From the NCBI RefSeq assembly GCF_037042905.1, contig NC_087252.1, positions 23,436,001-23,500,000 on the forward strand: a stretch of 64,000 nucleotides of DNA, in the 5' to 3' direction. Made by a program: the position numbers and the translations under genes. A model generated the notes under the pieces. The model saw only the letters and a program-made list of their open reading frames with translations. It did no database searches and was not told the origin of the DNA. Below are positions 16,770-18,877 of this stretch, piece by piece. The DNA is from Lytechinus pictus. Taxonomy: Eukaryota. Positions within the stretch are counted from its first letter, which is position 1. Each line of letters opens with the position of its first letter.

Positions 16770-18877
16770 GTCACCCAACTACAGACAAACCTGAGGAAGG
16801 TGTAGCCGGTCTTCCAGAGTTTATGAAGGTGTTAGCGGAATATGTAAACCAACTGGAACTGGAAGACGAGGATCCGCATTCCTCAGAGGTAGAATTATCA
16901 GCTGGTGAAGAAGAGAGCAACGTCCTCCCTACCCAATGGGAAGAACCGGAGTTGGAATCTCCGCAGGAGGTAGTGGTCTGTCAACTTCGTTCGTCCTCGA
17001 TGCTGAGAGTAGAGGTAAAGGTGAATGGCGTTACACTTGACGCAGTGGTAGATTCTGCTGCAGAAGTGACCATTATCTCGGATCGAGTGATGAAACTACT
17101 TGACCCTGCCCCGCCCCTGGTGAAGGAAGTTGTTTTGAGCACCGCTGGCCGAGATACACGCTTGCAAGGAGCAGTGATCGGCCCAGTGGAGGTAAGAATT
17201 GGAAGAAAGTGTTTTCCCGGTAACATTTACACAGCATCGATAGCGGATGACATGCTGTTGGGTCTAGATTTTCTTGAGCAGCATTCAATTGATATCCTTA
17301 TAAGTAGTAAGGAGCTGCTTATGGGGGATGAACGGATACCCATGAAGTTCGGAGTTGGTCGGAATGGTGGACGAGTAGCCAGAGTTAGCACCTCACACCG
17401 GACCACCATCCCACCCAACACACTGAAGCGTGTCACCGGGGTAATAGACCAGAGGATGAACGCTTGTGTTTTTGAGCCATCATCCGTATTACCCGCTCTA
17501 GCACCTAGGTCGCTACATGACGGAGGTACGCTCATTCAACTGTATGTTTTGAACCCAACCGACAGAGTAGTCCATCTGGAGGGCAACAAGATAATAGGCC
17601 GGGTCTTCGAGGCAGTGGCTGTGGCTCAGGTGCCATCTTCTCTTCCAGAAAGAGATGAGGAAACCAGGTCACATTCGGCGCCTCAAGAGCTGGAACCTAA
17701 AGTCAACTGCTTAACAGAGGACGTGGCGGAAGAGGTGCCAGAACATTTACAGGATTTGTATGACCGATCTTCGGAACTCTTGAACTCTGAACAGGAAGCT
17801 GAACTTAGGCGTATCCTGGGGGAGTTCGGAGACGCGTTTGCCCGTCACGACTTCGACTTAGGAGAATTTACAGCTATTGAGCACAAGATAGAGACAGGTA
17901 CATCAGCCCCAGTAAAGCATAAGATGCGAAGAACGTTGATGCGTTTCGCAGAAGCAGATAAGGCTGTGCTGAACCGAGAGAGGGAGGCAGGATTTATACA
18001 GCCCTCTCAATCGGGTTTAGTGATGGCGCCTGTGCTAGATCTCCTCCAGAGGTATCCAAACAACATCCTCATGAGTAGCAGAGAACTGTTGCCAGGGATG
18101 GAGAGAACACCATTGATGACGAGAAGCAGATCTAGCGAAGGACAGGTCGGCAGAGTGACCGTCCTGAATAGGATCATTGTTCCGTCCAATGTCCTCAAGC
18201 GAATCTCTGGAGTGATAGATCAGAAGATGACTGTAACTACTGTTTTGGCGAATCTGCTGAAACGGATCACTGGGATAATTGATCAGAAGGAGATTGTGAC
18301 TACCGTTCAGGCAAGCGTGCTGAAACGGATCACAGGATTGATCGATCAGAAGGAAAGTGTGACCATCGTTTTGGCAAATATGCTAAGACATGTCACAGGT
18401 ATCATTGGTCAGAGGATGACTGTGACCACGGTTTCGGCCAACTTGCTGAAGCGGATCACTGGCGTTATTGACCAGAAGATGTCGCTCATAACCACCCTTT
18501 CGGCAAATGTGCTGAAACGCATCACAGGCACCATCGACCAAAAGATGATCTCTTCGGTGTGTTTGACTTCTGCTTTGCATTTCAGAGCTAGAAGGTCTGG
18601 GTTTTGTCAGCTACAGGCGGATGTCCTCAAATCGACGGATAGGTTTTTCCTTCTGGAAGATTATGAGGCATTGGGCCAGGCTCACAGTGCGGAAGTAATA
18701 GCTCAGGGACTATCTTCACTGGGGATGGAGGAAGTTGGGACCCAGCTACAATCCTCGCCTCCTGAGTCGGACCCAACAATCAACCGCCTGCGAGAGGACA
18801 AGGTAAGTGACCACCCGCAAGGTTACTGGGAAGAATTGACTGGGCCTGTGTCCGTCGCCTCTCTCCAGGACTGGTAG
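16667..18877 (+). CDS. Aspartic protease + truncated RT N-terminus + duplicated repeat domain. Open from 16667, first ATG 16823, in the -1 frame relative to gag.
   Basis: AVVDSAAEVTII and MLLGLDFL retropepsin motifs; DLG..IEHKIETG..PVK...AGFIQPS RT start; six 21-aa repeats. Confidence 0.88.
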   Translation, partial: KPCGFRFGPQGGGGVKLERVRGGEGGHTLARATIGHPTTDKPEEGVAGLPEFMKVLAEYVNQLELEDEDPHSSEVELSAGEEESNVLPTQWEEPELESPQEVVVCQLRSSSMLRVEVKVNGVTLDAVVDSAAEVTIISDRVMKLLDPAPPLVKEVVLSTAGRDTRLQGAVIGPVEVRIGRKCFPGNIYTASIADDMLLGLDFLEQHSIDILISSKELLMGDERIPMKFGVGRNGGRVARVSTSHRTTIPPNTLKRVTGVIDQRMNACVFEPSSVLPALAPRSLHDGGTLIQLYVLNPTDRVVHLEGNKIIGRVFEAVAVAQVPSSLPERDEETRSHSAPQELEPKVNCLTEDVAEEVPEHLQDLYDRSSELLNSEQEAELRRILGEFGDAFARHDFDLGEFTAIEHKIETGTSAPVKHKMRRTLMRFAEADKAVLNREREAGFIQPSQSGLVMAPVLDLLQRYPNNILMSSRELLPGMERTPLMTRSRSSEGQVGRVTVLNRIIVPSNVLKRISGVIDQKMTVTTVLANLLKRITGIIDQKEIVTTVQASVLKRITGLIDQKESVTIVLANMLRHVTGIIGQRMTVTTVSANLLKRITGVIDQKMSLITTLSANVLKRITGTIDQKMISSVCLTSALHFRARRSGFCQLQADVLKSTDRFFLLEDYEALGQAHSAEVIAQGLSSLGMEEVGTQLQSSPPESDPTINRLREDKVSDHPQGYWEELTGPVSVASLQDW

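Follow-up and report, generated by a model that had tools for sequence, protein, structure and literature searches.

The usual view is that competition by non-autonomous LTR elements works by means of RNA signals or through the provision of Gag, and LTR swapping between autonomous and defective elements was reportedly described in soybean by Du and colleagues in 2010. Outside retrotransposons, a phage dUTPase (3zez) moonlights in satellite induction. Among the closest described systems is the wheat pair RLG_Quinta/RLG_Cereba, which is old and recombining and in which the non-autonomous partner carries its own gag and an extra coding domain; a primer-binding site (PBS), polypurine tract (PPT) and LTR termini held in common with the autonomous element, together with retention of gag and absence of RT and integrase in the partner, are the published marks of such a pair (PMC11302176). 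Domains that are or resemble dUTPase lie between the protease (PR) and reverse transcriptase (RT) in LTR retrotransposons of rotifers, fungi and planarians (PMC5408684, PMC6431247). Recombination between autonomous and defective elements during reverse transcription gives rise to chimeric new insertions whose LTR is common with the helper, and this template switching requires co-packaged RNAs (PMC6894440). Lastly, Ty1 p22 is a truncated, Gag-derived protein of an autonomous element that is able to enter particles and is inhibitory (PMC4599808).

The window analysed here (the whole stretch of 64,000 nucleotides from Lytechinus pictus) contains a 9.2 kb LTR element (11786-20971) whose second ORF (16667-18877) includes a tandem array of a short motif (Table 1). 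As in RLG_Quinta/RLG_Cereba, the non-autonomous elements bearing this array have kept gag, lack RT and integrase (IN), and share their PBS, PPT and LTR termini with an autonomous element; unlike that pair, they reside in an animal-type genome, and their extra ORF is a traceable Pol remnant, composed of a dead protease, two pseudo-dUTPase copies and an RT stub, with a selected tandem array. The pseudo-dUTPase domain has the same position and predicted fold as the rotifer, fungal and planarian domains, from which it differs in that the catalytic motifs and C-terminal arm are absent and one strand has been duplicated and multiplied in satellites. Chimeric insertions with the helper's LTR are also found, although here the crossovers lie in Pol and fall twice at approximately the same place in the array (18284-18291). 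The predicted satellite ORF2 product resembles Ty1 p22 as an element-encoded truncated protein that would be able to enter particles, but it is Pol-derived and comes from a separate satellite; it was rejected as a p22-type factor because such factors originate from Gag's C-terminal half. Herpesvirus dUTPase-related proteins (7byf, 8qdo) and the phage dUTPase use the dUTPase fold as a protein-interaction module, whereas here a strand of it is multiplied in tandem. We know of no tandem amplification of one dUTPase strand among herpesvirus or phage dUTPase proteins. Searches of the open literature turned up no account of a satellite in which a Pol motif is amplified, nor of Gypsy elements carrying TatD. 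From sequence comparison and structural modelling, we propose, at a probability of roughly 0.4, that the array may serve, fused to Gag, as a multivalent docking module for the capture of helper Pol.

Table 1. Features of the array-bearing element, in coordinates of the window
Feature	Position	Strand	Remark
5' LTR, 428 nt, TG...CA	11786..12213	+	Target-site duplication CCAA just before, 11782-11785
Primer-binding site	12214..12235	+	Same in helper and satellites in 7 of 8 paired elements; two differences in the eighth
gag, CCHC knuckle	14574..16769	+	Helper-type in the window copy
Candidate -1 frameshift signal (GTCAAAC and a stem, separated by a 5-nt spacer)	16709..16758	+	Inferred; overlap is dual-coding
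Ddi1-like aspartic protease, catalytic Asp at 17051	16985..17345	+	Helper-derived; Asp absent from satellites
Pseudo-dUTPase copy 1, predicted dUTPase fold without catalytic motifs	17372..17641	+	Single motif at 17402-17458
RT N-terminal stub	17750..18030	+	Helper-to-satellite crossover at ~17919-17920 inside
Old duplicate of protease C-terminus and linker	18035..18172	+	46% identity to helper over 65 codons, including unit 1
Six tandem motif copies, R1-R6	18173..18547	+	Purifying selection measured
Rest of pseudo-dUTPase copy 2	18548..18706	+	32% identity to copy 1 over 53 codons
C-terminal tail up to stop	18707..18877	+	One weak alignment, to the helper region before integrase (score 41)
Polypurine tract	20528..20545	+	Identical in 8 of 8 paired elements
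3' LTR, 426 nt, then CCAA	20546..20971	+	Against 5' LTR: 0 substitutions, one 2-nt indel

With its TG...CA LTRs, target duplication, PBS and PPT, the window element is of the Ty3/Gypsy LTR type. Of the 18 matches returned by a search with its LTR, two are diverged and single, and the others make up eight paired elements. All eight pairs have 4-bp target duplications and the same PPT, with LTRs 0-3 substitutions apart within a pair, and 0-11 substitutions separate the LTRs of the window copy, the helper and the young satellites. Helper copies (G000:C7 and C17) encode gag, a 1463-codon pol with a terminal PHD finger and a 1267-codon third ORF, and are devoid of the array; gag followed by PR-RT-RNase H-IN is the order in this same-LTR helper, while the window copy and the satellites stop in the RT stub. 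In the satellites (C3a, C16, C5a and C3b) the array is present, alongside a gag of their own and an ORF2 that has neither RT nor integrase. The preliminary description had the satellite depend on a helper, and the existence of this autonomous partner bears it out. The catalytic Asp of an active retropepsin has been lost in all three satellites aligned (C16, C3a and C3b) and is intact solely in helper-derived parts, for example in the window copy. Satellite gag differs from that of the helper by a dN/dS of 0.07 (dS 0.74) in the capsid region, and ORF2 is open over 673-705 codons in three young copies; the gag of C3a carries a stop. Non-coding non-autonomous elements of the TRIM/LARD class were ruled out, as two ORFs are under purifying selection. 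The array belongs to an old non-autonomous Ty3/Gypsy satellite family paired with a TatD-carrying helper elsewhere in the genome.

Several further observations concern these elements and their surroundings. The helper's third ORF (L017:2205-6005, G000:C17) terminates with a DNase domain of the TatD type (E 6e-30 in Pfam), and a TatD-ending third ORF also occurs in many sister Gypsy families (87 matches). Two satellite copies bear secondary insertions of ~2.3 kb (L019:1362-3655) and ~3.2 kb (L024:1047-4240). The 5' leader contains two arrays (13003-13498 and 13713-14203, of 75 and 65 nt), both built round TTAAAGGG; leader arrays of this kind are common to helper and satellites, vary in copy number and are candidate packaging or regulatory signals. 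The window element itself interrupts, at codon 4, the single gag-pol frame of a host LTR element (9970-26304) with near-identical 175-nt LTRs. The adjacent gag-pol (20958-25232) was considered as the helper and rejected: because of its 31% identity over RT-RNase H, its unrelated LTR and its lack of the motif, it is the insertion target. Elsewhere in the window, a further array of 63-nt period (59298-60083) is unrelated in sequence to R1-R6 and possibly coding on the minus strand, and copies of a long inverted-repeat (foldback/MITE-like) family lie at 8259-9973, 26302-26415 and 35751-36584.

The candidate -1 frameshift signal is kept in the helper and in all four satellites. Satellite gag and ORF2 are covered by a few RNA reads, which lie in the sense direction as usual (depth at most 1.3, in one of three raw runs); over the array the depth was 0.15-0.9 in one of the three and 0 in the other two, ~6% of each run having been covered. 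A splice-donor-like site is present in the LTR at 12103-12114 (LTR position ~323), from which reads in two runs leave the element for sequence not found in the loci compared, possibly representing an LTR-driven host transcript.

The array has, as had been claimed, six units with a 63-nt period, the last of 66: they start at 18173, 18236, 18299, 18362, 18425 and 18491, are spaced by 21, 21, 21, 21 and 22 codons, and are in frame within the second ORF. The conserved Gly is encoded by GGA, GGG, GGA, GGT, GGC and GGC, exactly as the preliminary description stated; its account of Arg (CGA/CGG/CGC) and Lys (AAG/AAA) codons holds in five units and fails in unit 4, where the residues are Arg-His (AGA CAT). 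Across the 19-codon core, the 15 unit pairs give pS 0.62 and pN 0.20 (Jukes-Cantor dS 1.31, dN 0.23), for a corrected pooled dN/dS of ~0.17 from pairs that are mutually non-independent, and differences occur in 136 of 285 comparisons at codon position 3 as opposed to 59/285 and 62/285 at positions 1 and 2. That the units diverge mainly at synonymous sites is correct per site only, because the raw counts are about equal (~131 synonymous, ~126 non-synonymous). At 0.32, the pN/pS observed (0.19-0.50 by codon bootstrap) was matched by none of 2000 column shuffles and by none of 9000 neutral simulations with a transition bias of 2-10; among the five other reading frames of the array, all of which contain stops, none has a lower pN/pS. 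The protein-level purifying selection that had been suspected is borne out by a pairwise dN/dS among repeats beyond every null tried: the array is real and under selection.

What the array is derived from can be read from the domain that follows the protease. In a model of the protease and this domain (pLDDT 86), the motif forms a short strand, a PPN turn and a 13-residue strand. Comparison with 48,161 chains matched residues 130-219 to dUTPases, dCTP deaminases and herpes dUTPase-related proteins, these being the non-protease structural matches of the model, and the best dUTPase-fold matches score Z 9.1, 9.0 and 9.0, the top one with an rmsd of 2.8 over 79 aligned residues (VIA-align). Similarity to dUTPase at the sequence level is weak (E 0.49; Pfam dUTPase in one of 18 members; hhalign probability 8%). 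The catalytic motifs, namely RSG, GxID and the C-terminal Gly-rich arm, are present in five phage enzymes and absent from the aligned domain sequences of the family. A word-index search with the domain gave no match, and a feature-based atlas comparison, with nearest clusters scoring 0.93, provides a lead only. The domain is therefore predicted to have a dUTPase fold and to be enzymatically dead, and the array unit is predicted to correspond to its PPN turn and long strand. In five families, conservation is 0.69 in the motif versus 0.39 in the rest of the domain, the motif figure being inflated by the choice of those families for their similarity. The array on its own is predicted, with low confidence, to be helical rather than beta (pLDDT 58, pTM 0.30); a Foldseek search with this model found no match at E<=0.001, which is uninformative on the fold, and Pfam returned four weak matches, every one below cut-off. 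The Pro-Pro turn has been lost from five of the six units, which may therefore fail to reproduce the strand in its native form.

The history of the array is one of repeated recombination and considerable age. Informative sites in the window copy are helper-type through 17919, with one exception, and satellite-type from 17920, and by this comparison the copy is a helper/satellite chimera. In another copy, C1, the switch into the array comes after the stop of pol, near 18284-18291. In a second species, contigs from three runs of two samples, 9-14% different, match 18291-18466, with 18014-18290 outside their cover; exactly one 66-nt unit is skipped before the tail, and the upstream end, which extends 33-47 nt beyond the array part, matches the helper integrase 3' region, such that the frame would be kept. 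Since template switching needs co-packaged RNAs, the chimeras imply that helper and satellite RNAs shared particles. The proposal that the array was amplified from the single TTIPPN...DQRM motif stands with regard to homology, the synonymous sites between that motif and the units being saturated (pS 0.61-0.87); direct origin from the upstream motif of this same ORF is unsupported, because recent recombination brought that motif in from the helper. Upstream, the array is flanked by a duplicated protease C-terminus and linker, now diverged, and downstream by the rest of the domain, so that it represents internal amplification within a second, older domain copy. An older satellite, C3b, has seven units, the extra one differing from the others at 10-21 of 57 nt. 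The description of the module as newly evolved is contradicted by the nearly saturated synonymous sites between units (dS ~1.3), this equally diverged seventh unit and the partial array in the second species; the array is old rather than new.

Profile searching for homologues, as proposed in the preliminary description, revealed the motif amplified in other proteins (P0002, P0003 and P0014/16/17/19). The HMMER search produced 14 matches, of which the eight examined were four family members (P0002, P0003, P0013 and P0014) and four unrelated repeat proteins, and a further word-index search added four. The motif is single, within a whole domain, in P0013, which has RT, and in P0021. P0002 has the domain and three motif copies; P0003 has five matched copies, mostly 21 aa apart; P0014/16/17/19 have three or four copies 43-45 aa apart, have lost the domain core and retain an intact protease motif where covered. 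Spacing across the amplified proteins is thus 21-45 aa. A single clade of amplified proteins is rejected by a protease-only tree (p-AU 0.006), in which two of three amplified lineages fall beside single-copy relatives and which is open to distortion by recombination with local helpers; separate origins are also argued by the differing unit lengths. The same strand has been multiplied repeatedly in related proteins that do not form one clade and that are RT-less as judged from the protein alone. Among motif columns, N occurs in 15 of 18 amplified units and most conserved residues are polar or basic; these counts carry some circularity, since K/R, G and Q are demanded by the pattern used for picking. 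Metagenome scans yielded 230 candidates, none confirmed, and none of 18 wider-clade metagenome loci has an array or this version of the motif.

Two other non-autonomous families were noted in this genome. One (L064:4024-4935, L076:5045-5953; more than 10 similar matches) keeps gag and an intact protease and ends seven residues past the same motif, with TatD remnants downstream in some copies; its stop position is weak evidence, since the codons beyond the stop are about as conserved. The other (L073:4017-4664) ends right after the protease, before the motif, which counts against the docking of helper Pol, and in L063, the full-length relative nearest to it, the strand exists in a different version.

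In the proposed mechanism, satellite ORF2 would be made as a Gag fusion through -1 frameshifting, placing a selected six-fold copy of one predicted strand of the helper pseudo-dUTPase domain in the particle. If this strand is the domain's self-association contact, the multivalent array could pull helper Gag-Pol, and with it protease, RT and integrase, into particles assembled on satellite RNA, helper Gag-Pol being the putative partner. The reading draws on selection, helper dependence, co-packaging and the recurrent multiplication of the stretch in which the domain is most conserved. Counted against it are the thin RNA cover, the low-confidence helical model of the array with the loss of its Pro-Pro turns, the changes among young copies within the array (no synonymous, 1-2 non-synonymous) and the array flanks, where older and younger satellites differ with dN/dS near 1 (5-8 changes). 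A host protein or RNA as the partner suits the evidence equally well as helper Pol. The motif would then be a short linear motif recognised by a host factor or by RNA/tRNA, serving as an assembly site or in import or packaging, which satellites multiply to outcompete the helper. This would agree with the retention of the motif without domain core in P0014/16/19, with the polar and basic character of the conserved residues and of the array (net charge +11), and with the binding of host proteins by herpes dUTPase-related proteins (7byf); on the other hand, no known host motif was matched in Pfam, and within the clade some families have the motif and others lack it, a family-specific distribution that suits self-recognition. 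We regard it as rather unlikely.

Recruitment of helper Pol fits the evidence better than interference with it. A decoy, in which the assembly of helper Gag-Pol is poisoned by a Gag-ORF2 fusion whose protease is dead and whose strands are free, much as Ty1 p22 acts on Gag (PMC4599808), would explain why a catalytically dead protease is retained in an open frame alongside a second copy of the protease C-terminal strands. It is nonetheless improbable: the satellite relies on the helper for RT and integrase, the near-identical LTRs of both families indicate recent insertion, and P0014/16/19 combine repeats with an intact protease motif. Amplification by slippage, with selection merely preserving, within the Gag fusion, a spacer that stays open and soluble or a rod that self-assembles, would be consistent with 21 aa being three heptads, with the long helices of the array model and with unit number changing in whole steps (seven, six, one unit skipped in the second species). 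Such a by-product seems still more improbable in view of the conserved positions of the array, which are polar residues invariant in single-copy families, the difference between unit core (pN 0.14) and N-half (pN 0.25), and the recurrence in other lineages of one particular motif rather than a random part of Pol. Near-identical motifs in sister families and the frequency of recombination here would allow each unit to have been captured singly from a different autonomous family, selected in its own Pol, the array itself being unselected. That origin is very hard to reconcile with the derived Ala and exact tandem register common to R2-R6, the presence of Pro-Pro in all eight single-copy motifs collected, a flanking duplicate nearest, by eye, to this helper's lineage, and the pN/pS of 0.33 (13 changes) between window and older satellite copies in the array, and we consider it highly improbable.

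The broader proposition, that satellites of the TatD clade have independently and repeatedly multiplied a self-association strand of a dead-dUTPase domain of Pol into a hook hijacking helper enzymes, is at present doubtful. If true, a selected and repeatedly amplified Pol-derived peptide would represent an active protein strategy of LTR satellites, the pseudo-dUTPase domain that lies unannotated between protease and RT would gain a function, and a defined 19-residue peptide would offer a handle on how RT-less elements obtain RT and integrase and how Pol enters particles. Should the mechanism prove wrong, the fact that one motif recurs still indicates that this Gypsy clade has an interaction site so far unrecognised.
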